A DNA stretch of 60,295 nucleotides from an uncultured virus (IMG/VR IMGVR_UViG_3300020048_000043) (Duplodnaviria; Heunggongvirae; Uroviricota; Caudoviricetes), in the IMG/VR virus record IMGVR_UViG_3300020048_000043, positions 62,001-122,295 of that record; one strand, given 5' to 3'. The stretch's first letter is position 1, and the number at the start of each line of letters is the position of its first letter. The translations under genes and the position numbers were made by a program. The notes beneath the pieces were generated by a model. That model was not told where the DNA came from. It did not search any database and was given only the letters and a program-made list of their open reading frames with translations. Below, one piece after another: positions 3,272 to 43,238 of this stretch.

Positions 3272-3551
3272 TTTTCTTTTCCCCATCTTTCTTTTTGAGT
3301 TTAATAGATACAATAAAATTAATTAATGTTGTAGTAAAATGTAAAACTAATATTCTTTTTAATTCAATCGTCATCGTTTCGAACAATACAATACCACCGA
3401 TTAGAGGAAAAGTTAAATAAAGAATAAAATCAAAAAACGTCTTTGAATGTGTAACAATCAATGTTATAGCTAATAAAAAATGCGTTATAGTATAACCTAT
3501 TTTTGATACCCATTCAAATGTAGGTTCAAATTCTTTACTTTCCTCCAACAT
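3264..3551 (-). CDS. small membrane protein
   Basis: three hydrophobic segments; AAGGAGG RBS. Confidence 0.7.
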   Translation of the reverse strand: MLEESKEFEPTFEWVSKIGYTITHFLLAITLIVTHSKTFFDFILYLTFPLIGGIVLFETMTIELKRILVLHFTTTLINFIVSIKLKKKDGEKKNV

Positions 3552-3563
3552 AAGACCTCCTTT

Positions 3564-6696
<3,133 letters not shown>

Positions 6697-11421: not shown

Positions 11422-14415
11422 TTAATCTCCTGCGAAATATTCATTTATCAACGATGATCTATTATTCCATACATCATTAACTGTTATTTGTCCATCTGCT
11501 CTAATAACTTGAATAATTTTTCTATGCTTTATATCTAACGCACAAACAGCAAGTTCGTTAGGTTCCATTTCTCCTAATCCTTTATATCTAAATATTTGTA
11601 CATTTGTTTTTCTTATTTCTTCTACTTTACTTTCATCATATATTGGTGTAAATTGTTTTTTATTATAATATCCAAACAATGGTGTTTCTATTACATGTAA
11701 ATATCCTTCATCTATAAGAGAAGGTAAACAATAATCAAACATAGATATTAGAAGGGCTGCTATATGCCTTCCATCCGGATCAAAGTCACAATTTTGTACT
11801 ACAATTGCATTTTGTTTTACAATTCCTTCTTTTTCTACATCATATACTATAGCATAATTATGATATTTATCTACAGTAATATTATAGACCGGAATCAATA
11901 CATCTAATTTTTTTCGTTCAACGCATGTCACTTTATGATTATATGTTTTTGCATATTCAATCATTTCATCAATAGAGTCATAATAATTCAATACATTTTC
12001 CCATTTCGGATCTGATCTTGATGTTCTATATTCTTCATAATATGGACCAATAACAGGTTCATTATTATCAAGAATCTTTTTAACTATTCTAGCAATACTA
12101 TTTCTTGCTTTCTTTGTTTTATCATATGAAACACAAACTTTATAATCATTCAAATTGTATTTATCTTTATTTTGTATTGCTGTTTTTAAAATTTCGTCAT
12201 ATGAATCAAAATATTGTAACAAATTTTCATAAAAAGAAGTACCATTACTACGCCAATTATTAAAATTCGTTTCATTAAATTCAAGATTTTCAGATAATAG
12301 TTTACATACGCATTTTAATATTTTTCCTTTTTTTTGTAATATTTTAACATCTTCTCTTTGATTTAGTTGACGTGTAGATTCTTTATTTTTTTCTGAATAA
12401 TTATATTCTGTTAAATGTATACATATATTTTGATATGTATCTGTTTCACGGTGTAAATAAGATATTCTTTCACCATGTATATTTAATGCGTTATACGCAT
12501 TAATGTGATATGAATTATGATCTTTTTGTGTTAACCATTCTAAATTACAAAGTTCATTGTTTAAAGTATTTGAATCTTTGTGATGACAAACTAAATTTGA
12601 AAACAATTCATCCGTTTTATTTGCCATTATTCTATGTGTTCTATAATATTTAGATTCATCTACATTTCGTTTCATGTATTCATATTGTAATCCGTGTTGT
12701 TGAAACATATGAAAATATAATGGCATTAAACTCATACCTGATTGTAAATCTTTAGCTTCTATTTTAGTTCCATCTCTTAAAATAAATTTATGTGTAGGTG
12801 TAACTTTTACTACATGATCATTATCGATAGTAACATATATTAATTCATCTACATAACTTGTAATTCTTGGAGCATATGCTTTACCAGGAACATAATTACC
12901 ATGATCATCAATAGAGTATACCCAATAATCTCTACCAGGTTTTTCTTTTTCCATTTGAACAAGTTCTTCAAATGTTTTATCTTGACCATTTAACATTTTT
13001 ACCTTTGTATCACCTGTAAAACACATAACATTGATTTTTCCATATCTTATATCTGATAAATCTGTTGTGAATGGTTTTACATTGATAGCTGTAAAAATAT
13101 TCATCAGTGTTTTACTATTCAAAATCTTTTTCTTATCCGCATTGAGTACATTCAATACTTTTCCACGTAAGGGGAGTAACGCATGTATATTTATATCACG
13201 TGCTAGTTGTAACGTACCACCAGCAGATTGTCCTTCTAATAGAAATAGTTCTCTTTCATCCACATTAGCAGAAGTACAATCTTTTAAATCTTCTACCATA
13301 ACAACGTTTCTACTTTTACGTGTTTTGGTTTGTTTCTTTGTGTCCAATTCTATTCTATATTCTTGAGCTAATGCTAACCAATTCATAACAAACGTTTGAT
13401 CATTTTCTAAAAACTTTATAATACTGTTTTTATTAATGATATGTTCTATATCACTTTCTCTCATGTTCAATGAATACTTTGTTTGTCCAGCAAAAGCAGG
13501 ATTTGTTATTTTTAAAATTGTCATAAGACGTCCACCTATTAAGACATCTTCTTTATTAACATGTAACTTTGCTTTGACTGCTTTTTCATAAAGATAATCT
13601 TTCACAATTGTTTCAATCATCTTTTGATGTGTTCCTTGATCTACGTTCAATGTATTTATAACACCTTTGAATTTCTTATATTTACTACCTTCATTTGTGT
13701 AACCTACATACAAACGTAACTCATCTTTTTTATTTTGAATTGTAGTTGTAAGATACTTAGAACATTCTGTTTCAAATTCTTTCACTATTGTATTTGTAAT
13801 TTTTTTAGATATGACATTGTTGTCTTTCATAACGATAAGAAGCATTTCTATTTTATCTTCATTATCATATACAAGAATAGATTTAAGTCTATTCTCTATA
13901 AGTTCTGGATCTATGAAAACTGTTTCAAAATGTTTTTCATTTGGAGTAAAAGATACACTTGTACTGAATTGTTTTTTATCTACATCTTTTTTAGTTACAT
14001 CTGTTCCATTGAATATGTAATGTCTATGTTGATTACCATTCTTTGTAATTATTTCAAATGAAGTACTTAACGCATTTACAATTACAAGACCTTCACCATG
14101 TAACCCACTTCTATGTTGGTAAAGATCATTATCAAACTTACCTCCAGTGAATAATTTTGTTGCTATTACAACTGGAGCATCTTCTTTAAAATCCGGTGAT
14201 TTGATTGGAATACCTCTACCTTTATCTACTACTGTATATTTATTATTATCCAAATCCATTATGACAGCTAAAAAGTTACTATTGCCTGTAAGACATTCAT
14301 CTGCTGAATTATCTATTAACTCATACAATAGATGCGTTGGATTTTCTGTAGAGCCCATGTAATTCCCTGGACATAGTTGTATGTGTTCAAATTCAGATAA
14401 GCCTCTTATAGCCAT
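11422..14415 (-). CDS. type IIA topoisomerase ATPase/TOPRIM subunit (GyrB/ParE-like) with intein; about 586 aa after splicing
   Basis: ELIDNSADE, DKGRGIP, GGKF, GLHGEG, LLEGQSAGG, PLRGKVLN, DFDPDGRHI, RYKGLGEM. Confidence 0.95.
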   Translation of the reverse strand: MAIRGLSEFEHIQLCPGNYMGSTENPTHLLYELIDNSADECLTGNSNFLAVIMDLDNNKYTVVDKGRGIPIKSPDFKEDAPVVIATKLFTGGKFDNDLYQHRSGLHGEGLVIVNALSTSFEIITKNGNQHRHYIFNGTDVTKKDVDKKQFSTSVSFTPNEKHFETVFIDPELIENRLKSILVYDNEDKIEMLLIVMKDNNVISKKITNTIVKEFETECSKYLTTTIQNKKDELRLYVGYTNEGSKYKKFKGVINTLNVDQGTHQKMIETIVKDYLYEKAVKAKLHVNKEDVLIGGRLMTILKITNPAFAGQTKYSLNMRESDIEHIINKNSIIKFLENDQTFVMNWLALAQEYRIELDTKKQTKTRKSRNVVMVEDLKDCTSANVDERELFLLEGQSAGGTLQLARDINIHALLPLRGKVLNVLNADKKKILNSKTLMNIFTAINVKPFTTDLSDIRYGKINVMCFTGDTKVKMLNGQDKTFEELVQMEKEKPGRDYWVYSIDDHGNYVPGKAYAPRITSYVDELIYVTIDNDHVVKVTPTHKFILRDGTKIEAKDLQSGMSLMPLYFHMFQQHGLQYEYMKRNVDESKYYRTHRIMANKTDELFSNLVCHHKDSNTLNNELCNLEWLTQKDHNSYHINAYNALNIHGERISYLHRETDTYQNICIHLTEYNYSEKNKESTRQLNQREDVKILQKKGKILKCVCKLLSENLEFNETNFNNWRSNGTSFYENLLQYFDSYDEILKTAIQNKDKYNLNDYKVCVSYDKTKKARNSIARIVKKILDNNEPVIGPYYEEYRTSRSDPKWENVLNYYDSIDEMIEYAKTYNHKVTCVERKKLDVLIPVYNITVDKYHNYAIVYDVEKEGIVKQNAIVVQNCDFDPDGRHIAALLISMFDYCLPSLIDEGYLHVIETPLFGYYNKKQFTPIYDESKVEEIRKTNVQIFRYKGLGEMEPNELAVCALDIKHRKIIQVIRADGQITVNDVWNNRSSLINEYFAGD
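11791..13023 (-). mobile_element. intein (411 aa) with HNH endonuclease
   Basis: block A CFTGDTKV, block B VTPTHKF, block F VYNITVDKYHNY, end VQN followed by Cys+1; internal HR..HHKDSNTLNN..NLEWL..H. Confidence 0.93.
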
Positions 14416-15288: not shown

Positions 15289-16416
15289 TCAACCAATAGT
15301 ATTTAATAGTATTGGTCCAGCTTCGTAACCAGCACCATATGGTCCGGTGAAGAATCGATTTAAGATATTTTTGCCCGCATTGATGTCTGCGTTGTCACGA
15401 TGGCCACACGATTGACACAAAAATATCTCGCCGTTCCGATTCTTCTTATCGACATAGCCGCATTGACGACACGTTATGCTGGTGTTCTCAGGCCAAACTC
15501 GTCTAAAGGAAACACGGTTTTCTTCACAGAGCATTTCCAACCTGGTCAGCCAATAACGCACGTTCCAACTGCCGATAACAGAGCGTATATTTTTACTCAA
15601 GCGCCCTTTGAGTTTGGTACCATGTGTAATGTCTTTTAATCGCTCAACTACTATCAAGCTGATATCAGACATCACAATCCTTTTCGCGTTTAAAGCTATA
15701 TAATCTTTCAACGTCTTAATGGCTCTCGCTTTACCCTTCGAACCTTTCTTACGACGTCTGACTATATTGATTAAGGTTTTCAATTCTAAACCAATTTGCT
15801 CGCCTGTTGATAACGAAGCTAATGCGTTGACTCCAGTGTCAATACCAACACAATTTGTAATAGGTTTCTTTTCACCAGTTTGAATTTCAAATGTAACTTG
15901 AACACAATTACGGAATATGACAAATGATCCCATCAAACGACCGCGTGCGTTCCATTTGTGAAACATGCGATGAAGTTTAATAGGAATATCGATTTTAATT
16001 TTATCACCAATAGATCGTAAAGACAACCAACGGTCGAACGTTTTACTTTGCTTGGCTTCAGTGAATGAACAAATTGCTGTTGATAACGCCATTCGATTTC
16101 CATAATGCGTTGGTTTAACTGCCGCTACTTCGCGTTCCAATTCTTTGGAAGCAGCTTTCGCTTGTTCGATAGCCGCGTTTACCATGCTTAGGGCTTCGCG
16201 AGCAGCCTGTTGTTTTAATCTTTGTGTGAAATAAGGGTGTTGAACACGATCTAGCAATTCTTTCTTAAGGTCTGCTTCTCTACATCGTTCAACCCAGAAG
16301 ATATCTATATATGAATTCACTACATGTTTATATTCGTCCATAATAGCGTGGATTTGTTGAAATTTTTTCTTCGTAGCTGAAGTGAAATGTAACTTCACAG
16401 ACCTTAAGATTTTCAT
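15289..16416 (-). CDS. tnpB: TnpB RNA-guided endonuclease (IS200/IS605/IS607 type)
   Basis: RuvC I VGIDTGV, RuvC II VVERL, Zn ribbon TSITCRQCG..CQSCG, RuvC III NADINAGKNI; visibly higher GC than its flanks. Confidence 0.93.
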   Translation of the reverse strand: MKILRSVKLHFTSATKKKFQQIHAIMDEYKHVVNSYIDIFWVERCREADLKKELLDRVQHPYFTQRLKQQAAREALSMVNAAIEQAKAASKELEREVAAVKPTHYGNRMALSTAICSFTEAKQSKTFDRWLSLRSIGDKIKIDIPIKLHRMFHKWNARGRLMGSFVIFRNCVQVTFEIQTGEKKPITNCVGIDTGVNALASLSTGEQIGLELKTLINIVRRRKKGSKGKARAIKTLKDYIALNAKRIVMSDISLIVVERLKDITHGTKLKGRLSKNIRSVIGSWNVRYWLTRLEMLCEENRVSFRRVWPENTSITCRQCGYVDKKNRNGEIFLCQSCGHRDNADINAGKNILNRFFTGPYGAGYEAGPILLNTIG

Positions 16417-28401: not shown

Positions 28402-28478
28402 TGGTGGACCCATTTGGAATTGAACCAAAAACCTGTCCCTTATAAGGAGACTGCTCTTACCGATTGAGCTATGAGTCC
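28402..28478 (-). tRNA. tRNA-Ile(UAU)
   Basis: cloverleaf; anticodon arm GTCTC-CTTATAA-GGGAC; T loop TTCAATT; encoded CCA. Confidence 0.9.
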
Positions 28479-28489
28479 ATATTTTATTT

Positions 28490-28566
28490 TGGTGCCCCTG
28501 GACAGATTTGAACTGTCACTTTATTGTTTTTGGGACAACTTCCTCTACCGATTGGGATACAGGGGC
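28490..28566 (-). tRNA. atypical tRNA, anticodon CAA (Leu), short variable arm, C33
   Basis: acceptor stem GCCCCTG/CAGGGGC; arm GTTGT-CCCAAAA-ACAAT; T arm GACAG-TTCAAAT-CTGTC; CCA. Confidence 0.75.
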
Positions 28567-28610
28567 AGAAAAAAGGAAATCTACAATGACTTCCTAAATT
28601 TGTTTTAAAT

Positions 28611-28697
28611 TGGTGCCGGACACGGGACTCGAACCCGCAAGCCCCACTGGGCGGGGGATTTTAAATCCCCAGAGTTTACCAATTTCTCCAATCCGGC
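28611..28697 (-). tRNA. tRNA-Leu(UAA)
   Basis: arm GGGGA-TTTAAAA-TCCCC; long variable arm; GGTTCGAGTCC; CCA. Confidence 0.93.
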
Positions 28698-29765: not shown

Positions 29766-30896
29766 TTATACACTTTCCTCCATTAAAGATTGACAAAACT
29801 TATACATCTGTGTAAGTCTGTTATGATAATCTCCTTTTACTATCATCATTCTTGGATGACTATAAAAATCTCTAATATTGAAATTCTTGTAGTGATCTAG
29901 TAAAACAACATCTAATTCATCTCTAGCTTCTTCATGTCTTCTCAATCCATCACTTACCCAAGGAACACCCTCAGATGATAAAAAGAATTTAAAATTATAC
30001 AAGTCTTGATAATGTGCGTCATATATAGAACTAAAAAGTTGAAATTCTGTATCAGATATTTCATAAATACCGTTTTCATGTTTGTACAACATATAATAAT
30101 AATATGTAACTACAATATCTGTATCAAAGAAACATATTTTATTACATGTTTTCAACGCATGATCATTTGCTTCTATCTGTAGACGAATAATATTAAAATA
30201 ATCTTCGTCTGTAATAAATCTTTCATCATGAACATTTTGTTCTACGTATGTTCTTCCTATTTCTTCTGCCCATGATGTATGGAATATTTTAGCTAGCATT
30301 TTAACAAGTGTAGTTTTTCCTGTAGACTCTGTTCCTGTAATAAGAATCTTTTTAGCAAAATGCTTACGTGCGCAACCACAAATATAATCCCAATATTTTA
30401 AAGGATTATTTCTTATTTGTGTAGCAGATATTGGATATCTTGTCATAGAATAATCAAAATACTTAACATCATATTCTGGAAAATAAGATTTATATGCTTC
30501 TATATCTTGTTGTTCACCTGTAAAAATAGTAAATTTATTATCTATTGTAAAAGGTGTACAATTATAGAAAATAAAATCTTCCAAACATTTACTCCATTGT
30601 GGCCAACCATATGGATATTCTGCTATATCTGTAGGTTCATCCATGATATGAATCTTAATATTAGCAAAACCTTTTAATTCTGTTTTCAACCAACGTGATC
30701 TCAAATCTGCTGGTATATATTTGATTTTTACTTCTTCGCATAGTTTTGTATCTAATGTTATGTTATTACAAATGATAATGTGTAATTGATCACATTGTGA
30801 ATACGTATTAAAAATATGAGTCAAATGGCCTCTATGTAAGGGAAGAAACTTACCAACTAATATCCCATTATGTAACACTCCAAAATCCATAGACAT
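29766..30896 (-). CDS. nadR: NadR-type NMN adenylyltransferase / ribosylnicotinamide kinase (no HTH)
   Basis: GKFLPLHRGH, ISATQIR, Walker A GTESTGKTT, FFDTD, WVSDGLR. Confidence 0.9.
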   Translation of the reverse strand: MSMDFGVLHNGILVGKFLPLHRGHLTHIFNTYSQCDQLHIIICNNITLDTKLCEEVKIKYIPADLRSRWLKTELKGFANIKIHIMDEPTDIAEYPYGWPQWSKCLEDFIFYNCTPFTIDNKFTIFTGEQQDIEAYKSYFPEYDVKYFDYSMTRYPISATQIRNNPLKYWDYICGCARKHFAKKILITGTESTGKTTLVKMLAKIFHTSWAEEIGRTYVEQNVHDERFITDEDYFNIIRLQIEANDHALKTCNKICFFDTDIVVTYYYYMLYKHENGIYEISDTEFQLFSSIYDAHYQDLYNFKFFLSSEGVPWVSDGLRRHEEARDELDVVLLDHYKNFNIRDFYSHPRMMIVKGDYHNRLTQMYKFCQSLMEESV

Positions 30897-31750
30897 TAAT
30901 TATTCCTCCATTTTTTCAAAATAGACCATTCTCTTTTTTCTTTAGCATCTTCTGTCCATTTATAATACCCATAGAAACTATTAATAAGAAAACCAAACCA
31001 CATGAATATAATTGGAAGCACCCATGTAATTGTAGTTTTATCGTTCATTATAACTAGAATCCACATACTGATTGTAATTACATTTGTTAGAATCCAAAAT
31101 ATCCACTGCTGTGAATATGCCAATGTCATTAGGATTTGTCCAATAATCTGTAATACTTCCGTAGATGAATCCAGAATTGGACCAAGTAAAGAAATACCTG
31201 TTATTGCTGTTATATTTGTATATATTGATTCGTTTCTTTTCATTACTTGAACAAACCAATGATCTACCATTGAAAGAAACAAACCAAAACCAATTAAAGA
31301 TATGATAGAAATTATTGTAATTATTCTAATACCTTGTTTTGTTAGTTTTCTAGGTTTGATATATACTTTAGAAAACTTATCCATGTGATATTTTTTCCAT
31401 ACAACCCAACCAATAAATTGGAAGGGTAGAAAGAAAAACCAATTTAAAATCCAATCACCATAATATCCGCTATACCAAGATATTGCTCCATACATAATAG
31501 CATTAATTATACCCCAGTAGTAATTAGTAATATTTTCTTTTGCTACTAATACAACACACACAATACCTGTTATAGCAGCTACTGGTGATATAATCCAATT
31601 TAATATAACATCAAAAAATGTTTCGTATGGTGTTATATATGAAAAGTAAAATGTAGAACCCATAATGATAGTAGTAATAAAACCTACTAATATTTTTTCA
31701 AACATGTTCCATGACGCAAAGTCTAGAGATTTTTGAATATACTTTATCAT
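30896..31750 (-). CDS. pnuC: nicotinamide riboside transporter
   Basis: multi-TM; GIVCVVLVAK..NYYWG, LDS, QWIFWILTN, NSFYGYYKW; coupled to nadR. Confidence 0.88.
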   Translation of the reverse strand: MIKYIQKSLDFASWNMFEKILVGFITTIIMGSTFYFSYITPYETFFDVILNWIISPVAAITGIVCVVLVAKENITNYYWGIINAIMYGAISWYSGYYGDWILNWFFFLPFQFIGWVVWKKYHMDKFSKVYIKPRKLTKQGIRIITIISIISLIGFGLFLSMVDHWFVQVMKRNESIYTNITAITGISLLGPILDSSTEVLQIIGQILMTLAYSQQWIFWILTNVITISMWILVIMNDKTTITWVLPIIFMWFGFLINSFYGYYKWTEDAKEKREWSILKKWRNN

Positions 31751-33970: not shown

Positions 33971-36900
33971 TTACCCTTTCGGATCAACACCCATACATAG
34001 TAGAATAGAATCAAAGAATTGACCAGCTCCACTACGATTTACATCGAAATTAATATCTGCTTTACCGTTCTTATATATTTCAGATATTACTTGTTTTTTT
34101 GCTTCTGGATTATCTGCGTTCACTAACCAGAAATCCGAAAGAACTGTATGTGCATCATAAGATAATAAACACCATGTGTCCATCTCACCCATACGTTGTC
34201 CTCCCGCACGTGCTTTACCTCGTGTGGGTTCTAGTGTGGTTTTAATATATGGTCCCAAATTTCTAACATTTTGTTTTACTGCAGAAATGTGTTCCAATTT
34301 CTGTATATACATTATCCCCCAACAAACAGGATATTGTGTTTTTGAATTTATTTCTGGTAATAACATTGTATCTGATAATGTTGTTCCTACAAATTTTAAT
34401 GCTTCGTATATTTTTTCATTTGTTGGAGATCTGAATGGAGGAACAACTAAATGTATTTTATTATTTGCTATACCAAAAATAAATTTTTTAAAATCGGAAT
34501 CTGCTAACATTTGTATATTTTTAGAAACTTGTGAACTATAACTTTTATCTGTTGTGCCATCTAATAATTCATATAATTTAATAAGAAATTCTTCGATCTT
34601 TTGTCTTGTTTCATTTTTCTTTAACATTTCTGCTACACGTTTACATGTATAATATAAAATTTTACCTACAATGACTTCATACATTTGTCCTAAATTCATT
34701 CTACTAACTACAGAAAGAACGTTAATTAAAATATCCATACGTTCTCCACTTTCTGTAGTAGGCATCAAATGATCTGGAACTATATGTGATACAACTCCTT
34801 TAGCAGCATGTCTATTTGTTAACTTATCACCTAATGAAACAGGCATATAACGAAGCATTTTAATAATGATTAATGTTTTTGGAATTTTTTCACCATGCGC
34901 TGTATATTTTCCTACGTTATTTATAATTTTTTTCTTATCAAATATTGGTGGTAAACCTTGTTCTTTTAATCTAGCATTTGTTTCGCTATATGCTATTTCT
35001 ATTTGATTTAGAATTGGTCCAACAAGTTGTAAACTTTGTGGATACACATTAATATCTACCACTTTAATTTTAGCTGGAGCTATTATTTCATAATCTTCTG
35101 TTAATGCCATATCTCCAACTAAGTTTCTTTTGATATTAGCAATGGTTTCACCTTTTTCAAATACTTGACCTATTGCTGGAAATAACGCTAATTTATCTCT
35201 ATCTGTAAGTTCTATTTCAACCGTATCATAATGTAATGATGTTAATTTTTTAGCTAAACTTTCACTTAATACAATACCGTCTTCGTAATTATAACCAAGA
35301 TATGATAAGTATCCACATTTTACATTTACACCTTGTGAAAGTATAGGTTTTAAAAATTCATTTCTTGTAAGCATACGATTTTGTCTAACACTATCTCCAA
35401 CACGAACAGATGGTGTATGTGTAATTGCGCTATCTATTCCCGATCCACTTTTAAGTTGTGTAGGTCTAATATCTATAGCTTCTTTTGTACCATCTGTATA
35501 TTCAAGAATAATAACATTTTCATCTATATATTTTACAACACCATCTTTTTTAGCACGTTTAGTAAATGTCGAAGAAGTTAATGCTGGTATTGTAGATTCT
35601 GTTCCTGTTAATAATATAGGTTCTTCTCCATCAACAATAGGAACAGTTTGTCTGGCTTGATTACAAAACATGTTTAAACGAGCTTGGTCATTCTTATCAA
35701 CAAAAGGTGATAATGAAGTTGTAAGTCCTAGTATATCTGTGTTTTCATCATTAAAAGACATAGGCATAAAACTATGTTTATCGTCATCATAAACATGTCC
35801 TGTTGTTAAAAATAATCTTATACCAGGATCCCCTTCAGATGTATCTATTGGATCTAAATTACCAAAATGTGAAGGTCTCATTGCTCTATCTTTAGGTTGA
35901 ACAGCATCTCTATTTGGTAACCCACCAGGACCCACTGTTTTAACACTAGCATATCCAGATATTTCTTCAACTGGATTTTGTTGTTCTAACATTTGTAATA
36001 CGCCATGTTCTCTAAAGTAATTAATAACATGTCCAATATTAACCTTCAATGGGGCATCAGGTGTATAAATTCTTTGTTTTTTATAAATAGAAACACCCGC
36101 ATGAATACCTTGTTCTACACCAGATACAATAATATCCGTTGTACGCAAATATGTATTATGTATAGCTAATTTATCATCTGATTCACCTGATATGGAAAGT
36201 TCAGAACAATGCTTAATAATATCTACTAATTCTGTTGGTAACTTATGTTCTTTTAATACATCATATGTTTGTACGTCTACAATATATTTTGTGGTCTGTC
36301 TAATATTGTATTCTGCTTTATTTTGCTTAGTATATTGTTTTAATGATTCTAATGCTTCTTTCACCTGATTAATATTTTTTGGTTTATATTTAAACCACAT
36401 TTGTTCTAAACCCGAAATAATAACTTTACTCATTGTATCCATTTTCTTTTCAATAACTAAAAATGTTCCATCTCCCATAGGAAGTGAAATAAAATTATTA
36501 TCTTTCTTTTTCTTTTCATAAAAAGCAAAATTAAATTTATATGCTCTTAACAATCCTTCTACACTTAACAAACAAGAAAGTAACATAGCTACAGGTATTT
36601 TAAATCCACCTAAATAACATCGTATATCTTCTCGACGATTGAACAAACCATATGTAAAACTGATGGCAGAATAATTTGATCTAAATTGTACATATCCAGG
36701 TTTGACTATGAAAATAGGTAATGTTGATAATACTGTAGGATAATACCATTTCAATCCACCAGATACAACATAACGATCTTCTGTCAATTTAGGTACTTTA
36801 AATTTCAATGTTATTTTTTGTCCATCTGGTTGTTTTACTTTAATATTAATATGTTCTATTTGTGTTTCAAATAATTCTGTATCTGATGTATTTACATCTG

Positions 36901-38218
36901 TGAATGTTATATTTAATAATTCATATCCAATTTCACTTAAAATGGGAGGTAATGATTTTTTCAAAATGTCGATTAATTTTTGTTGATATCCATGTCTTCT
37001 AGCAATAGCATGTGAAATATGATTTTTAGTTAAATCTTTTTGTATATCCGGTTTATGTATTGCATCGATAGGTAATGTTTGTGTTAAACCTAATTTTTTA
37101 GCTTCTTGTTCTTGTTTACTAACAGTTTGTAAATCTTGTTTAGTTGGAGTATCTATTAATGCAGATTCGGGATTATCTGATTGGTTTAATGCTGCTTTCA
37201 TTATTTGTTTTTGAGCAAAATCATCATCTAATGCATATGCTTTAACAACTGTTTTTGAAATTTCCGGTGACGATTTAGCAAATGCTTGAACTCTTGTTAA
37301 TGCAGTATCTATATTTATTTTTAATGATTGTAAATCTTTATAATTATTACGAATAATATCTTTAGATGCTAATATAATATCCCTTTGTGTGATAACTGGT
37401 TTTTGAATTTGTCGTTCTGGAGGTTTTTCTTTTATTTCTATATCATCTGTTTTACTTATTTTTTCTTGAGGTATTTTTTTATCTTGTATTATTTTTTCTG
37501 GTTCTATTAAATCTATAAGTTCGTTTTGTTCTTCTTTTTCAAATGTTTCAAAATCTTCTTCAACAGAAATAATTTTTTTATTTTTACAAGATTGATAAAT
37601 CCATTTAAGAAAAATAGCAAACCTATTATCCGTAGAACGAGATTTTTCATAAATTAATCTAGCGGAATCGTTTGTAACTAAAAATATTTTATCAATACCT
37701 AAATCTATAATATTTTTACGTAAATTAAATGAAAACATAAATGAATACAATTCTTTTTCACGAATACGTGCAGGTAATACAGATTCATCTATATAATATA
37801 AAAGAATTGTTTCTTTATTTGCTTCTTTGACGGTAGACACAATATTTGAAAAAAACTTCAATCCTTCTTTAGCAAAACGAATAGGTGATAATCTTTGATT
37901 CAACGAATGTATAAAAGGTGTAATATCAAAATAAAAACTTCTACCTTCTAATGCTTTTGGATTAAATAATACTGTTATATTTTTTCCATATTGTTGTCTT
38001 ACATTTGCTGGATTGATTGTCATTATTCTATTAAATACTCTTTGTATTCTGGGAGTATACGCAAAATAAAGACGTCTACTTAATGGTAGTTTAGGTACAA
38101 ACGGCGCACCTTGTTCTGCTCCTTCTACCAACAATATTACATTATGATCTTGTAAAGGAACATACATTCCACTAGATCTATTAACATATAACCTAAATTT
38201 TTCTACACGTAATGCCAT
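33971..38218 (-). CDS. rpoB: DNA-directed RNA polymerase beta subunit, set 2 (1415 aa, with about 400-aa N-terminal extension)
   Basis: GPGGL, DPIDTSEG, FCNQARQ, GYNYEDGI, GDKLTNRHAAKGVVS, SRMNLGQ, KLEH, GGQRMGEMD. Confidence 0.95.
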   Translation of the reverse strand: MALRVEKFRLYVNRSSGMYVPLQDHNVILLVEGAEQGAPFVPKLPLSRRLYFAYTPRIQRVFNRIMTINPANVRQQYGKNITVLFNPKALEGRSFYFDITPFIHSLNQRLSPIRFAKEGLKFFSNIVSTVKEANKETILLYYIDESVLPARIREKELYSFMFSFNLRKNIIDLGIDKIFLVTNDSARLIYEKSRSTDNRFAIFLKWIYQSCKNKKIISVEEDFETFEKEEQNELIDLIEPEKIIQDKKIPQEKISKTDDIEIKEKPPERQIQKPVITQRDIILASKDIIRNNYKDLQSLKINIDTALTRVQAFAKSSPEISKTVVKAYALDDDFAQKQIMKAALNQSDNPESALIDTPTKQDLQTVSKQEQEAKKLGLTQTLPIDAIHKPDIQKDLTKNHISHAIARRHGYQQKLIDILKKSLPPILSEIGYELLNITFTDVNTSDTELFETQIEHINIKVKQPDGQKITLKFKVPKLTEDRYVVSGGLKWYYPTVLSTLPIFIVKPGYVQFRSNYSAISFTYGLFNRREDIRCYLGGFKIPVAMLLSCLLSVEGLLRAYKFNFAFYEKKKKDNNFISLPMGDGTFLVIEKKMDTMSKVIISGLEQMWFKYKPKNINQVKEALESLKQYTKQNKAEYNIRQTTKYIVDVQTYDVLKEHKLPTELVDIIKHCSELSISGESDDKLAIHNTYLRTTDIIVSGVEQGIHAGVSIYKKQRIYTPDAPLKVNIGHVINYFREHGVLQMLEQQNPVEEISGYASVKTVGPGGLPNRDAVQPKDRAMRPSHFGNLDPIDTSEGDPGIRLFLTTGHVYDDDKHSFMPMSFNDENTDILGLTTSLSPFVDKNDQARLNMFCNQARQTVPIVDGEEPILLTGTESTIPALTSSTFTKRAKKDGVVKYIDENVIILEYTDGTKEAIDIRPTQLKSGSGIDSAITHTPSVRVGDSVRQNRMLTRNEFLKPILSQGVNVKCGYLSYLGYNYEDGIVLSESLAKKLTSLHYDTVEIELTDRDKLALFPAIGQVFEKGETIANIKRNLVGDMALTEDYEIIAPAKIKVVDINVYPQSLQLVGPILNQIEIAYSETNARLKEQGLPPIFDKKKIINNVGKYTAHGEKIPKTLIIIKMLRYMPVSLGDKLTNRHAAKGVVSHIVPDHLMPTTESGERMDILINVLSVVSRMNLGQMYEVIVGKILYYTCKRVAEMLKKNETRQKIEEFLIKLYELLDGTTDKSYSSQVSKNIQMLADSDFKKFIFGIANNKIHLVVPPFRSPTNEKIYEALKFVGTTLSDTMLLPEINSKTQYPVCWGIMYIQKLEHISAVKQNVRNLGPYIKTTLEPTRGKARAGGQRMGEMDTWCLLSYDAHTVLSDFWLVNADNPEAKKQVISEIYKNGKADINFDVNRSGAGQFFDSILLCMGVDPKG

Positions 38219-38237
38219 TTATAAAACACCTTCTTTA

Positions 38238-41200
38238 TCACAGATCTAATAAATTATCTAGATCTGAAGGTATCAACTGTTGATCTGTATTATTCAATAT
38301 TGCGCTATGTAAAGCATTAGATACATTTTCAAACGCAGCACCACGTTTCCAATTTTCTAACAATGCTACTTGTTTTAATGCTACTCGCAAAGGTCTATCT
38401 TTCATCCCACTTAATCTATATGGAAATTGTGGTCGTTTGGGATCTCTGCATAATTGAGATACTACTAATTCCAAAGACCAAAAAGGTATTATTGTTTGAG
38501 TAGCAAATAATTCATACATCTTAATAGCTAAGATATCATTAAACATTAATCTACTATTAAGAAGTTTACTAATTTCTTGTATAACACCTGTTATGGATTG
38601 TGAACTATTTTTCATACTTCCAAAAATTACATTTTCTTCTATATATACAATATGTTCAAAACCATCTATTACTAAACTATCTCTTGTTGGAACTACAATA
38701 GTGAAATTATAATTTAATACAAAATCAAATGTTTCATTTTCTGTTTCAATAGTAAATATTTGTACAATATATTCGTTCGCACTTCTTCCACGAATATCAT
38801 CTTCATTAAAAATAATTTTTAATTTTTGTTTAGACATTATTTCATTACCATCTTGTGTAACATAATTCTTTAAATTTGAATCTGGCTCTATGAAATTCTT
38901 AATAGTCCCAGCTCCACCAGTATGATAGCAATAGGTAAGTATTTGATATTATCTCTAACTTTTCCCCTGCTCCACACCGTGCTTGCGACTTTCACCGCAC
39001 ACGGCGTTCCATCGATATAATTATACTATCGACTAAGGGCTATTCCTCAACTCTCATTACAAGAGTTTCATAGGTCATTCCCTCGCTCTCACTATAGAAT
39101 AAATTATCTATAGCTTTCCACGTTCCAATCGACTTAGCTTTACATATACCCTTAGGTGCTTGCTCTACATTAAATAAATTATATCTTCATTGTTAGATAT
39201 CTCGACTTTCTTAACATCCAGCATACTCATCGATATTTATTTAATGCTTCATAACAAGTTCGTGTTCCTCACCATAGGTATTTTATAGCTCCCCAGTATA
39301 TTCTACTGACTTTACCTAGCTTCATACGTTATTAACGCATGTAGGAGTATTAGGAAGATTGTTTTAGCTAACATGATAGCCTCATTCCAATCTTCAGTCG
39401 ATTAGTTGTAACTCGTATATACGAGTCCTCTCTTTTCGTATTTTTATACTTATAGAGAAACGTGTCGCACGAATGTCTGCATGGTCATCTGGGATCCTCT
39501 TTCACCTATTATTTGTGCTGCTACCATTCCTATATTTGTAGAACGTATTTTAGTAACAGCATCATCGCCTAAACATTTATGACAAATTTCTGGTGATGTA
39601 CAATACATAGGTGAACGAATTTGAATAGTTTTATCAATATATTCTTCTGGATTAATAATCATGGTTCCATTGGATAAATATCTAGTATTTAAACCTTTTG
39701 CTATATCTTTTGTTACTTTTAACTCGAAATAATTTTTTGTTCCACAATCTTTTGTTCTAGCACTCATTTTAACACTTACTGTTGCATAAGCTAATTGTCT
39801 TGCTAAATATCCAGATACAGCAGTCATTTGTGATCTATCTACAATACCCTTACGACCACCTATACCTACTGCCATAAATTCTGAAGGTTTTAATCCATCA
39901 CTTAAAGAAGAAACAACAGGTTTTTCAATAACAGAACCATCTACATCTTCTACAAACCCTTTTGCTACTATTTGTGTTTGTATATTTTCTGTTTTACCTC
40001 GTCCTCCACTATTTACTAAATCATAAATAATGGAATTACTTTGATTTAATGCTTCTAATACATCTTTAGTAATAGCACTAAGTTCTTTTGATGGGTTTTC
40101 TGCTTTGAATGCTTCTTCCTTACGTTTTTCAAATTCTTTAGGTAAAGCAAATTGAGAAATATCCATACTTTTACCTATTAATGTTGGAGCAATCATACAT
40201 ACTTTCATTGTTTCATTCATTTTTTCCATAACAATATTTGCTTCTTCTTTTTCTGCTAATTTTAAAAACAAATCTGTAACATCTTTTTTCTTATATTGTT
40301 TTTCTATAGGTAAACCAATTATTTCTTCTAATATTGCTCTACCTATTGTTATTTCTTTCTTTTTAAAATTAACCAATAACGTTGGATCTGAATATTTTAA
40401 TAATACTCTATGTAAATCTTGAATACTATACACAGCATCTTTTAAAACTTTTTCAGATTTTGGATTTGCTGTTAACATATAAAAACCGTATACAGCATCA
40501 TTTTTAAAAGTTAATGCTAAACTTGTTCCATTAGGACCCCAAATATTTTTATCCATCATCATCTTTTCTTTGGCTTCTTTTTGTGCTGCTTCCGTTAATG
40601 GTAAATATATTCCCATCTGATCGCCGTCAAACATCTATATTCAAGTGTATTCGCTAAATACACCTCGCCTATTTAGGCTGCTATACGTCACCGTATAGAT
40701 TAGACTATATCTTCACCTTCATTACTGAAGGGCTCCCCGTTTCCACTCGCTTGAGTGTACTCTACTCCGTCATATAACGTTTCGATAGTCGTTGAACTTT
40801 CTGTTCTTGGCCGAACTTATAGATTTTGTTTTATAACCAACAACAAATATTCTAAACAATTTTTAGATAAATATTCAGTATAAAATTTTTGTGTTTCATC
40901 TAATAATGTATATTCTTGAAATTGTAACAATAATTCACATTCTAAATTTATTATATCATGTGCGTTTCCTTTAAATGAATGATGTATAAAATTTTTTGCT
41001 TTTAATTCTGTTAAACGTCTTTTGAAATCTGAACTACTTCCTAATTTTATTTTATCATCAAATTCAATCACATAAAGATATCTATCATCTTCTTTATTTG
41101 TTCTTTTCAAAAGATTATCTCTATTACGAATACGATCTGAATATTCACTATTAAAACCTTTTGATGTTTTATTTAATGCTCTAGCTTTAGATAATTCTGA

Positions 41201-42739
41201 TAATAATTTTTTATGTTCTTCACCATGCTCATCATAAAAATGATAAAAATATGATGTTCCTTCATATATTCCTTCTTTATGTAATTCTTTTATTTTTAAT
41301 GAATGACCTTTTCTTGAACATTCTTGTGAACAAAAATCTGATAAACGGCCAGATGATATCCTATCCGACCAAAATGTAGTAATTTCTTTATTACATATAG
41401 GACATAATTTTTGATATGTTTCATCTTGTAAAATATATTTTTTGTAATATGTTAATAACTCTATATTATGAACTTTTTGTAAATGTATTTTTAATAGAAA
41501 AAATTCTTTATTACATATTAAACATAACATGTTAAATTCTCCCTTGTTCGGCCAAGAACAGTTTAGCTGCTGATTATCTCTTTTGAGACTTTCCAGCAAT
41601 TAGAGGAGTTGTTTTTATGCTGTCACCAGCATAGCAGACAGTGACGGTAGTTTATCTGCATTATAACCGTCTGTTATAAGTGGGTTGATATGAAAACTAT
41701 CACTCCAAACTATAACTGGATAAAATGCTCTTAAATTTAAACGATGTAATGCAGGATCTCTTTTCAATACAACAACTTTTTCTGTACATAATTCATTGAG
41801 AATTTTTAAAAATAATGAAATAATTGTTGGATCTAATAAATCTTTTTTTCCTTCTTGAATCATATTAATCATATTACCTATATTAAGAATAGATGGTCTA
41901 ACAATACCCAATTTTTTCCAATCTTCCGCATATTTTGTTGTAGACTTATGAATAACAAATGGTTTAAAAATAGCAAGAGCAATTTTAAAAGGAACACCTA
42001 CTTTATTAGGTGGTATTTCAGGATCACCAATAATAACTGCCCTAGCTGAGAAATCCATTGATTTTCCTAATAATGATTTACGTTGTACTCCTGCTTTTCC
42101 TTTTATCAAATCTTTTAAAAGTTGGTATGCTTCAAAAACATGCTGTTGCATTTTTTGCAACAAATCTTTATAACTTCTAGATTTTATATCTGTAGTATTG
42201 ATAACTTGAGATTCATTCAACATATTAATATATTTTTCGTTAATAGGATCCATATTAATACGTGAATTTTCTATTCGTATAGGTCTAAACTGTGGAGGTA
42301 ATACAAGTATCTGTGAAATGAATGCTTTTTCTTTATGTTTGATAATGTAATTTATTAATGTTTTACTAGCTTCTGTAATATCTTTTTGTTTCAAAAATAT
42401 TTTTTGACAATATTTTATTTCCTCTACAAAATAATCTATACCCCAAGCTCCACTATTACCATCTACTAATTTATCATCTATAATAGACATTTTGCCTGTA
42501 AAAAATTTTTGTATTGTACTACATCTTCTATCTGCTATTTCATATAATAATGGGTGTAATACTTTACATTTTAAATCAATAGAACCATATACGGTTCTCC
42601 ATTTAGAAGAACCGTATAGGCCAAATACAACATTTGAAAATAAACCATTTGGATCAAATTTATCACCAATCATAATATTAGATGTAGTGATAAATTTGAT
42701 TTCATTATCTTCAATATATTTTGCTATATCAAGTAACAT
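38238..42739 (-). CDS. rpoC: DNA-directed RNA polymerase beta' subunit, set 2, spliced: exons 42739-41654, 40631-39471, 38924-38238 (977 aa)
   Basis: joins restore YNAD|FDGDQM and QMTMQTF|HTGG in frame; also GKSMDFSARAVI, KRDPALHR, TAVSGYLARQL. Confidence 0.93.
38925..39470 (-). mobile_element. ORF-less group II intron (546 nt)
   Basis: 5' GTGCG, 3' AT; domain V GAACGCCGTGTGCGGTGAAAGTCGCAAGCACGGTGT with CGC triad; domain VI; domain IV reduced to a short hairpin. Confidence 0.93.
40632..41653 (-). mobile_element. group I intron (1022 nt, IA-like) carrying a homing endonuclease
   Basis: exon ends in U, intron ends in G; P1 GCAGAU/GUCUGC; P10 CCGUCA/UGACGG; P AATTGCTGGAAA, Q AATCAGCAGC, R GTTCAACGACTA, S AAGATATAGTCTA. 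Confidence 0.95.
40817..41530 (-). CDS. intron-encoded homing endonuclease (N-terminal Zn fingers, C-terminal GIY-YIG/T5orf172-like domain)
   Basis: AGGGAG RBS then ATG at 41530; CLIC..HL..H, CPIC..FCSQEC, YLYVIE..IKLGSS..RRL..LE. Confidence 0.8.
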   Translation of the reverse strand: MLCLICNKEFFLLKIHLQKVHNIELLTYYKKYILQDETYQKLCPICNKEITTFWSDRISSGRLSDFCSQECSRKGHSLKIKELHKEGIYEGTSYFYHFYDEHGEEHKKLLSELSKARALNKTSKGFNSEYSDRIRNRDNLLKRTNKEDDRYLYVIEFDDKIKLGSSSDFKRRLTELKAKNFIHHSFKGNAHDIINLECELLLQFQEYTLLDETQKFYTEYLSKNCLEYLLLVIKQNL

Positions 42740-43238
42740 TGTTTAACACCGCCTTAGGTTCCTCTTCTTGTTGTTTCATAATTTTTTCAAACTCCAAATC
42801 AGATACAAGTTTATTTATAAATTCATCTATTTCAATAAAATTGTTTTGTAATGATTCTTCCAAATCTTTTTTTACTAAATTTCTATTTCTTTTTATTATT
42901 CTACATGTATAGCTCATAGGTTTATTTGCTATGTTTGCTTTATATTTAGACCAAACTTTTTCAATGGATGCAGTAACATATGTATAAATAATGATATATG
43001 AATTTTGTTGTGTGTCTTCTTTTTGTTGTTTATCTTCGTATGTTTCTATCATTTTATTTTTTAATTGTTCACAACGATATTCTATTTGATTATAATAATA
43101 TTCATCCAGTTCAATTGAATGTTTTTTTAAAAACACACGTAATTTATTAATATTCGGAGATAGAAGTAATTGAATCATTTTTTTGAAACCTGTATTTTTA
43201 TTAATAGCAATATCATTATTCATCATAATTATCCCCAA
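42729..43238 (-). CDS. hypothetical protein in the RNAP set 2 operon
   Basis: overlaps both neighbours. Confidence 0.7.
   Translation of the reverse strand: MGIIMMNNDIAINKNTGFKKMIQLLLSPNINKLRVFLKKHSIELDEYYYNQIEYRCEQLKNKMIETYEDKQQKEDTQQNSYIIIYTYVTASIEKVWSKYKANIANKPMSYTCRIIKRNRNLVKKDLEESLQNNFIEIDEFINKLVSDLEFEKIMKQQEEEPKAVLNNVT

Follow-up and report, generated by a model that had tools for sequence, protein, structure and literature searches.

The window analysed here is a 60,295-nt stretch of DNA from an uncultured tailed virus (Caudoviricetes), corresponding to positions 62,001 to 122,295 of the IMG/VR record IMGVR_UViG_3300020048_000043. Its minus strand carries, at 39470..38925, a complete group II intron of 546 nt which contains no open reading frame (ORF). 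We are highly confident that this element is a genuine, structurally reduced ribozyme of group IIB type, belonging to the D1D4-5 type of Rfam, and that it resides in the RNA polymerase (RNAP) beta' gene of a jumbo phage. It is a reduced derivative of IIB and not a textbook IIB intron; the introns of the phages AR9, LPJP1 and Internexus are members of its RNA family. A compact ORF-less group II intron had already been proposed at this place from the letters of the sequence (hereafter, the sequence-only reading), together with a suggestion to compare it with the Rfam models of such introns.

That comparison, performed over the whole window, bears the proposal out. RF02004 (group-II-D1D4-5) matches 39410..39282 with 89.4 bits (E 8e-18, gathering threshold 34.5). 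RF00029 (Intron_gpII, covering domains 5 and 6, D5/D6) matches 39009..38925 with 61.9 bits (E 8.8e-10, gathering threshold 40) and is matched over the full model, positions 1-77. The only other matches above gathering threshold in the window are three tRNAs. On the minus strand the intron starts with GUGCGACACG and finishes with ...CCUAUUGCUAU. Its 5' end GUGCG (39470..39466) and 3' end ...GCUAU agree with the boundary consensus GUGYG/AY, and the GUGCG start and the AU end lie exactly where the sequence-only reading had put them. Columns 1 and 3-12 of the intron are invariant in an alignment of seven relatives.

The CGC triad and the GAAA loop, which had also been noticed earlier, are read directly in D5 (AACGCCGUGUGCGGUGAAAGUCGCAAGCACGGUGU) and are confirmed by the RF00029 alignment. 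D5 is followed by D6, whose 3' strand has an unpaired UA in the structure line of RF00029; we take the unpaired A38932, eighth base from the 3' end, to be the candidate branch point, as in the usual group II geometry. Domain 4 (D4) is reduced, as had been suggested, to a 21-nt hairpin, TCGATAGTATAATTATATCGA, at 39032..39012, which forms a stem-loop in both the minimum free energy (MFE) and the centroid structures. No ORF of at least 40 aa was found inside the intron on either strand. With a 21-nt hairpin as D4, the intron encodes no reverse transcriptase (RT)/maturase of the kind that marks a mobile retroelement, nor does it contain a homing-endonuclease ORF of the AR9 type. The 4-nt AARC bulge of the epsilon'-lambda region is present as AAAC after the Ic2 hairpin in the Rfam alignment, as in IIB introns of the D1D4-5 type; the use of this bulge as a mark of subtype B follows Merk, Jones and Eddy (NAR 2025; PMC12350094).

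The intron and its parts are listed below, with the basis of each assignment in brackets (domain I to domain VI are D1 to D6; EBS and IBS are exon- and intron-binding sites).

38925..39470, minus strand: group II intron, 546 nt, ORF-less, IIB-like (Rfam, ends, exon junction, z score of the fold)
39471..39476, minus strand: IBS1 ACAUUC, final 6 nt of the 5' exon (sequence)
39466..39470, minus strand: 5' splice-site consensus GUGCG (sequence and invariant columns)
39119..39464, minus strand: domain I, closing stem CACGUU/AACGUG, intron positions 7-352 (covarying consensus structure)
39272..39276, minus strand: tetraloop receptor (zeta), 5' half UAUGG (invariant in 7/7 aligned sequences)
39214..39219, minus strand: EBS1 GGAUGU, intron positions 252-257, terminal loop of the D1 hairpin AUCGA...UCGAG (complementarity across relatives)
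39151..39156, minus strand: tetraloop receptor (zeta), 3' half CCUAAG (invariant in 7/7 aligned sequences)
39091..39114, minus strand: domain II, 24-nt hairpin (consensus helix 18)
39036..39083, minus strand: domain III (consensus helices 19-21)
39012..39032, minus strand: domain IV, 21-nt hairpin without an ORF (fold)
38976..39005, minus strand: domain V, CGC triad and GAAA tetraloop (RF00029 alignment)
38928..38970, minus strand: domain VI (RF00029 structure line)

UAUGG and CCUAAG presumably constitute a GAAA-tetraloop receptor of the 11-nt type, which would dock the GAAA loop of D5.

The ORFs flanking the intron are pieces of the gene for RNAP beta', an essential core gene. It is present in three exons:

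41654..42739, minus strand: exon 1 of RNAP beta', 362 codons, ending ...GYNAD (Pfam RNA_pol_Rpb1_2, positions 1-140)
39471..40631, minus strand: exon 2 of RNAP beta', 387 codons, FDGDQM...MQTF (Rpb1_2 positions 141-165, then Rpb1_5)
38238..38924, minus strand: exon 3 of RNAP beta', 228 codons, from HTGGAG to the stop (alignment to L046)

Exon 2 ends in ...GERGSQMTMQTF and exon 3 starts with HTGGAG, which puts the group II intron after the F codon and before the H codon of MQTF|HTGG, a motif of the trigger loop. Read-through from exon 2 into the intron ends after VRHVSL, i.e., the unspliced message meets a stop 7 codons into the intron. Twelve homologous loci from viral and metagenome contigs were compared at this junction. 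TF|H-x-G-G is unbroken in six of them (L040, L051, L052, L089, L050, and L042), three continue as H-C-N... (L046, L047, and L048), and L043, L044 and L049 are unclear at the junction. No intron match at the Rfam gathering threshold was obtained in L043, L044 or L046-L049.

The closest full-length homologue is L046, where beta' is a single ORF of 1276 codons. Exon 2 is 59% identical to its residues 362-750 and exon 3 is 58% identical to residues 1049-1276. The predicted spliced product amounts to 362 + 387 + 228 = 977 residues, while L046 without an insert discussed below has 978. At the sequence level, exact excision restores a reading frame collinear with the intron-free homologues. The gene for the beta subunit is located directly downstream (33971..38218), is intact (1415 aa) and matches Pfam Rpb2_6, Rpb2_7, and Rpb2_3. 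The beta' protein here is unsplit and is at most 34% identical to any phage record. An alignment scan of IMG/VR for beta' relatives gave six loci at 27-33% identity, a single-protein scan of IMG/VR found no close beta' relatives, and exon 3 had no tblastn match among phage records.

Exon recognition and the fold of the intron

The sequence-only reading had named GGAUGU as a candidate EBS1. This 6-mer (GGATGT, 39219..39214) pairs with the exon end ACATTC at all six positions, one of them as G-U, and is the sole fully complementary 6-mer within the first 480 nt of the intron. Related introns were gathered by scanning IMG/VR with the D1 motif TAATACTCCNACATGC and adding the phage records of AR9 (L002) and LPJP1 (L004). 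The scan returned 35 loci, ten of which are group II introns according to nhmmer matches to the window intron and to their 5' ends: L011, L013, L016, L017, L018, L019, L026, L032, L034, and L036. The remaining loci with the D1 motif were rejected as chance matches. Duplicates were left out of the counts (L016 and L018, equal to L034; L019, equal to L002), and MarsHill (L003) stands outside the EBS1 set. The 5' boundaries that we set for the AR9 intron and for the terminase intron of LPJP1 are the same as in Table S1 of Merk et al. (PMC12350094).

In the ten non-redundant introns the EBS1 loop has a conserved context, ..AGUAAGAAU before the 6-mer and UAUGAAA.. after it, with a short closing stem. 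The 6-mer at this homologous place, which is the one used for the count, is fully complementary (Watson-Crick or G-U) to the 5' exon end of its own intron in nine cases out of ten. The exon ends all differ, and none of the 90 cross-combinations of a 6-mer with a foreign exon end reaches 6/6; full complementarity at a fixed place is expected by chance at about (6/16)^6 = 0.003. Additional complementary 6-mers are found elsewhere in some of the introns: five in L011, three in L002, and two each in L017 and L034. The sole relative without full pairing is L013, where CUGACG in the EBS1 position pairs with the exon end at five positions of six. A full complement in L013, CGTCGG, sits 22-28 nt upstream in the 5' exon. 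With nine of ten introns pairing with their own exons and 0/90 with foreign ones, the 6-bp EBS1-IBS1 pairing is seen to covary across the family, which verifies the EBS1 proposed earlier.

In L017, L026, L011, and L036, EBS2 is present right after GGGUCUAAA as a 5-6-nt complement of IBS2. At the homologous place the window intron offers nothing of 5-6 nt that is complementary to exon positions -7 to -14, and the segment itself is deleted; therefore, EBS2 appears to have been lost from this intron. GUAUG at intron positions 245-249, a complement of exon positions -13 to -9, was considered as EBS2 and rejected, since it falls within the 5' portion of the EBS1 loop, which is conserved, and collinearity is lacking. 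A delta-delta' contact of the IIA type was rejected as well, as the base 5' of EBS1 is U and the first base of the 3' exon is C, which leaves them unpaired. For EBS3-IBS3 or delta-delta', two alignment columns (window intron positions 165 and 249) fit the first base of the 3' exon in all six introns with known 3' exons, a fit backed by only about 2-3 independent events.

The 546-nt RNA folds with an MFE of -153.7 kcal/mol, against -115.8 +/- 5.2 in 100 shuffles (z = -7.25). For the analysis of covariation, the window intron, L017 and L036 were aligned with MAFFT together with the 5' parts of L026, L013, L011, and L032. The RNAalifold consensus of these seven sequences includes 114 pairs over D1 to D3. 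In this alignment 94.3% of the cells are paired, compared to 74.7% after shuffling and 36-42% with slid partners. Pairs changed on both sides number 73 of 114, compared to 35.1 +/- 3.7 in shuffled alignments (none of 500 as high) and 12-23 with slid partners. Covariation from D1 to D3, combined with the fold and the Rfam matches for D4-D6, gives the six-domain structure of a group II intron.

Relative to its kin, the intron lacks the extension after the CAGUAGA hairpin, as well as the hairpin and the GUACGGGUCUAAA segment in Id. In the alignment, some 13 nt separate the two D2 strands of this intron, against roughly 27-130 nt in the relatives.

Run X15, whose library is labelled metatranscriptomic, supplies a natural variant of the intron on a contig of 540 nt. 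The contig is ~94% alike, covers 39028..39549 and is unspliced, including 79 nt of exon 2. We mapped its differences on the family consensus. Four of the 18 substitutions within the intron make up two compensatory double changes, from G-C to A-U at positions 72/340 and from U-A to C-G at 116/181. Three single substitutions keep or create a pair, eleven fall on unpaired positions, and no pair is broken. This pattern shows purifying selection on the predicted RNA fold within this intron lineage; the variant is no evidence of transcription or splicing.

Splicing, persistence and modes of spread

A search of ~5.8 billion proteins with exon 2 has found two further relatives: P0002, with 98% identity, and P0003, with 63% identity and 15 member sequences. 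Each of them begins with MFDGDQM and ends with ...MQTFVRHVSL, the latter corresponding to read-through into the same intron start. Therefore, the same two intervening sequences occupy the same places in these sequences, and the intron has, judging by these protein ends, been retained here by two or more other lineages. One scan of IMG/VR with the pattern ACNTTYGTGCGACACGTT for the same exon-intron junction gave a single locus, L126, which is a chance match without an intron. Near-identical DNA is present in landfill, wastewater, and aquatic metagenome runs, and 20 of the 24 listed sequencing runs contain part of the stretch. In the metagenome runs compared with this region, summed contig depth reaches up to ~270 over D5/D6 (38820-39147) and ~120-220 over the core of the neighbouring group I intron (40624-40787), compared to ~2-20 elsewhere; conserved D5/D6 and group I cores are common to the introns of many other organisms.

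The other intervening sequence separates exon 1 from exon 2:

40632..41653, minus strand: probable group I intron with an ORF (40817..41530), splitting NAD|FDGDQM of the same beta' gene (RF00028, sub-threshold)

RF00028 matches both halves of this element, with 40.4 and 24.3 bits (gathering threshold 50). The final U of the exon can pair with the G in GUCUGC, a P1-like GCAGAU/GUCUGC helix is possible, and the element ends in G. A 16-bp stem encloses the ORF of 237 codons with two CxxC-type motifs. Its Pfam matches, among them DUF4428 (23.7 bits) and T5orf172 (15 bits), are all below the cut-off. It matched no PHROG and showed no BLASTP similarity to AR9 g147, and tblastn against phage records gave one weak match. 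The NADFDGDQM motif is intact in L046, which lacks both introns.

Instead, L046 contains an in-frame insert of 298 residues, C752..N1049 (C...HN; positions 5171-6064 of this metagenome contig), between H and T of TFH|TGG. Matches to Intein_splicing (19 bits) and LAGLIDADG_3 (17 bits) of Pfam are sub-threshold. The insert is probably an intein, located one codon downstream of the site of the window intron; L047 and L048 begin in the same way (H-C-N). An intron was rejected as the source of the HCN... continuation in L046, since the insert is in frame and intein-like and has no Rfam intron match at gathering threshold.

We envisage that the group II ribozyme would be excised from the beta' pre-mRNA, probably by branching at the unpaired adenosine of D6, with the EBS1-IBS1 pairing holding the 5' exon, and that excision would yield the beta' frame of 977 codons. 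Without excision, translation would run into the stop codon 7 codons inside the intron and no polymerase could be made; we infer that excision is obligatory for beta' production. Since the intron has neither a protein of its own nor an EBS2-bearing arm, splicing would be either autonomous or aided by a factor supplied in trans, in line with the proposal of the sequence-only reading that the intron may self-splice efficiently or borrow a maturase. The sequence-only reading saw no RT in the window, which holds for the whole record of 122,295 nt, estimated as ~44% complete: neither RVT_1 (PF00078) nor GIIM (PF08388) has a match in it, and RF00029 matches it only once. Retromobility would thus be probably lost or dependent on another element. 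Given the lack of an RT/maturase in the record and of the EBS2 arm, the intron is probably a splicing-only element.

Several points weigh against this interpretation. Four of the listed runs were compared with 38000-42900: X1 (DNA), X7 and X11 (annotated as "RNA? probably DNA"), and X15 (RNA). No spliced joint 38924-39471 was found in the contigs of these four runs, and both splice sites are crossed unspliced; as all four runs consist of assembled contigs, this is uninformative either way. The only contig over the 5' splice site that is labelled metatranscriptomic is unspliced too, and may be DNA. The covariation counts lean towards the consensus structure, because a single alignment served both for its prediction with RNAalifold and for the counting, and the slid control is a partial answer to this. 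The 7-10 relatives are phylogenetically non-independent. The structure of D4-D6 rests on the fold and Rfam, covariation in D5/D6 being seen in three aligned sequences only. The loss of EBS2 rests on alignment gaps and failed searches for complements, which a non-homologous EBS2 shorter than 5 bp would escape. Finally, at ~44% completeness an RT/maturase may be encoded elsewhere in the phage or in the host.

The last point leads to the strongest alternative, namely that the intron is the same but retromobile, with the RT/maturase of another group II intron, encoded in the unsampled ~56% of the genome or by the host, acting in trans for both splicing and retrohoming. The record being ~44% complete leaves room for it, the EBS1 is intact and matches the site, and the closest D1 relative, L026, has a group II-type RT ORF in D4. 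A precedent is found in LPJP1, which has one RT-bearing and three ORF-less introns according to PMC12350094. However, 122 kb contain no RT or GIIM and a single RF00029 match, the EBS2 arm used by RT-bearing relatives is deleted, and the intron was found at no other site, the one IMG/VR scan for the junction pattern giving a single chance match. We consider trans-acting retromobility rather unlikely, on the order of one chance in five.

Another route would operate at the DNA level and not through reverse splicing: 1.16 kb upstream lies the group I intron, and cleavage of an intron-free allele by the product of its endonuclease-like ORF could lead to co-conversion of the group II intron. Both elements do reside in one gene, both are retained in P0002 and P0003, although the latter is only 63% identical, and L046 is free of both. 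But co-occurrence in three related sequences fits common descent equally well, the ORF belongs to no supported nuclease family (DUF4428 at 23.7 bits, T5orf172 at 15 bits) and is dissimilar to AR9 g147, and a conversion tract longer than 1.1 kb has to be assumed. Spread by co-conversion is accordingly given little credence. The possibility that the intron is a decaying remnant which does not splice, with the beta' gene broken or made as two polypeptides, has in its favour the lack of an intron-encoded protein, the reduction of D2, D4 and part of D1 and the spliced joint unseen in four runs, but it is very hard to reconcile with catalytic and docking elements which are all intact, with compensatory changes and zero broken pairs in the natural variant, with a break inside the invariant TF|HTGG that is exactly restored, with a second, complete exon set in frame, and with the intact downstream beta gene of 1415 aa.

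The splicing-only reading can also be combined with the neighbouring elements. In this clade of phage polymerases the codons of TF|H|TGG may form a shared landing site for unrelated selfish elements, here the group II intron and in L046 the probable intein, and the intron, with neither an ORF nor EBS2, may have ceased to move as RNA and now be a passenger propagated at the DNA level by co-conversion with the ORF-bearing group I element. We regard this as a long shot; if true, it would mean that a ribozyme retroelement has turned into a passenger of a homing-endonuclease element.

Genomic surroundings and comparison with known introns

Apart from the beta and beta' genes described above, two ORFs on the minus strand, 3564-5681 (705 aa) and 6706-9567 (953 aa), match PHROG families of RNA polymerase beta subunits. 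The presence of these two further RNAP-beta-like ORFs means that the phage appears to encode a second multisubunit RNA polymerase, like jumbo phages of the AR9/phiKZ type. A minus-strand ORF for the large subunit of topoisomerase II (11422-14415, 997 aa) has a match to a PHROG HNH endonuclease in residues 593-651; this HNH-like stretch may be an inserted mobile element or an intein. ORF 15289-16416 (minus strand, 375 aa) matches the transposase families phrog_12300 and phrog_506. Three tandem tRNA genes are located at 28405-28697 on the minus strand (67, 55.7, and 48.1 bits), the third of them with a long variable arm. Auxiliary genes of NAD salvage are found at 29766-31750, also on the minus strand, where neighbouring ORFs have matches to NMN adenylyltransferase and to a PnuC-like transporter of nicotinamide mononucleotide.

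Group II introns had been described in the sequence-only reading as rarely reported in phages, a statement which is out of date: Merk, Jones and Eddy (NAR 2025; PMC12350094) list 20 of them in cultured phages, six of which are ORF-less, and report matches of the same Rfam models in 9,229 IMG/VR contigs. According to the same source, all ORF-less phage introns are of subtype B, 580-690 nt long, with CGC or AGC triads. Five of the six match D1D4-5, the c-st intron having no D1-D4 match, and AR9-like phages harbour four of the six in their genes for RNAP beta or beta'. The lengths given in Table S1 are 594 nt for Bacillus phage vB_BspM_Internexus, 580 nt for Staphylococcus phage PALS_2 and 625-690 nt for LPJP1. 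For the Listeria phage LPJP1, with one RT-bearing and three ORF-less introns, a trans arrangement was suggested. The 89.4 and 61.9 bits of the window intron would pass the E < 0.01 cut of that work, in which rows at 41.6 and 44.8 bits are listed (PMC12350094).

This kind of intron is thus already published; new are the trigger-loop site, the probable intein that a sister phage has at a distance of one codon, and the probable group I intron in NAD|FDGDQM. The intron, whose boundaries and EBS1 are verified and whose fold covaries, is a well-documented addition to the recently recognised protein-less group II introns of phage RNAP genes, and extends this class to a divergent lineage of jumbo phages which is not AR9-like and to a new insertion site in the trigger loop. 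Taken together with the group I intron in NADFDGD and the nearby probable intein of the sister phage, the intron illustrates how selfish elements gather in those catalytic motifs of an essential enzyme that are most conserved. As a small natural ribozyme (546 nt, apparently no EBS2, D2 and D4 minimal), it is a candidate for studies of splicing. The general understanding of group II intron biology is left unchanged by it.

The ORF-less introns of Internexus, PALS_2 and LPJP1 resemble the window intron in matching both D1D4-5 and RF00029, in subtype B, in the CGC triad (several of them), in GTGCG/GTATG...AT ends, in the lack of an ORF, and in having a multisubunit phage RNAP gene as a host. Its D5/D6 is 79-84% identical to those of AR9, PBS1, Internexus, and c-st. 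Compared to the AR9-like set, the intron belongs to a different host lineage and is shorter (546 nt), its EBS2 arm being deleted and its D2 and D4 reduced to a minimum. The insertion site differs as well, MQTF|HTGG here and PIExYQ|xIYPS in AR9 and L034. In LPJP1 (L004), a group I core-like sequence, AAGATATAGTC, is located at ~3413-3485, upstream of the 5' end of the terminase group II intron; the same upstream stretch also holds a sequence resembling the D3 region of the window intron, and the LPJP1 elements may be adjacent or nested upstream of the terminase intron.

Relatives of the RT-encoding type in viral contigs, for example L026, can be aligned with the window intron over ~360-440 nt of D1-D3 (nhmmer E 7e-23 to 7e-29 for L026 and L017). 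They share the context of the EBS1 loop; EBS2 is retained in them, and their Ic/Id region and D2 are longer. L026, the closest D1 relative, has its group II-type RT ORF in D4, where the window intron has none. At the protein level, the probable L046 intein interrupts the same trigger-loop motif of an orthologous gene (59% identical), one codon downstream of the window intron.

A close parallel is the virion RNAP beta' gene of AR9/PBS1 (Merk et al. 2025, Fig. 5A; KU878088 g145-g147), where introns of both groups, I and II, likewise occur in one gene, with related D1 and D5/D6. In AR9, however, the group II element contains an ORF for a Vsr-like endonuclease, as L034 carries an endonuclease ORF at the place of D4, and is located upstream of the group I intron, whereas the group II intron described here is ORF-less and lies downstream of its group I neighbour.

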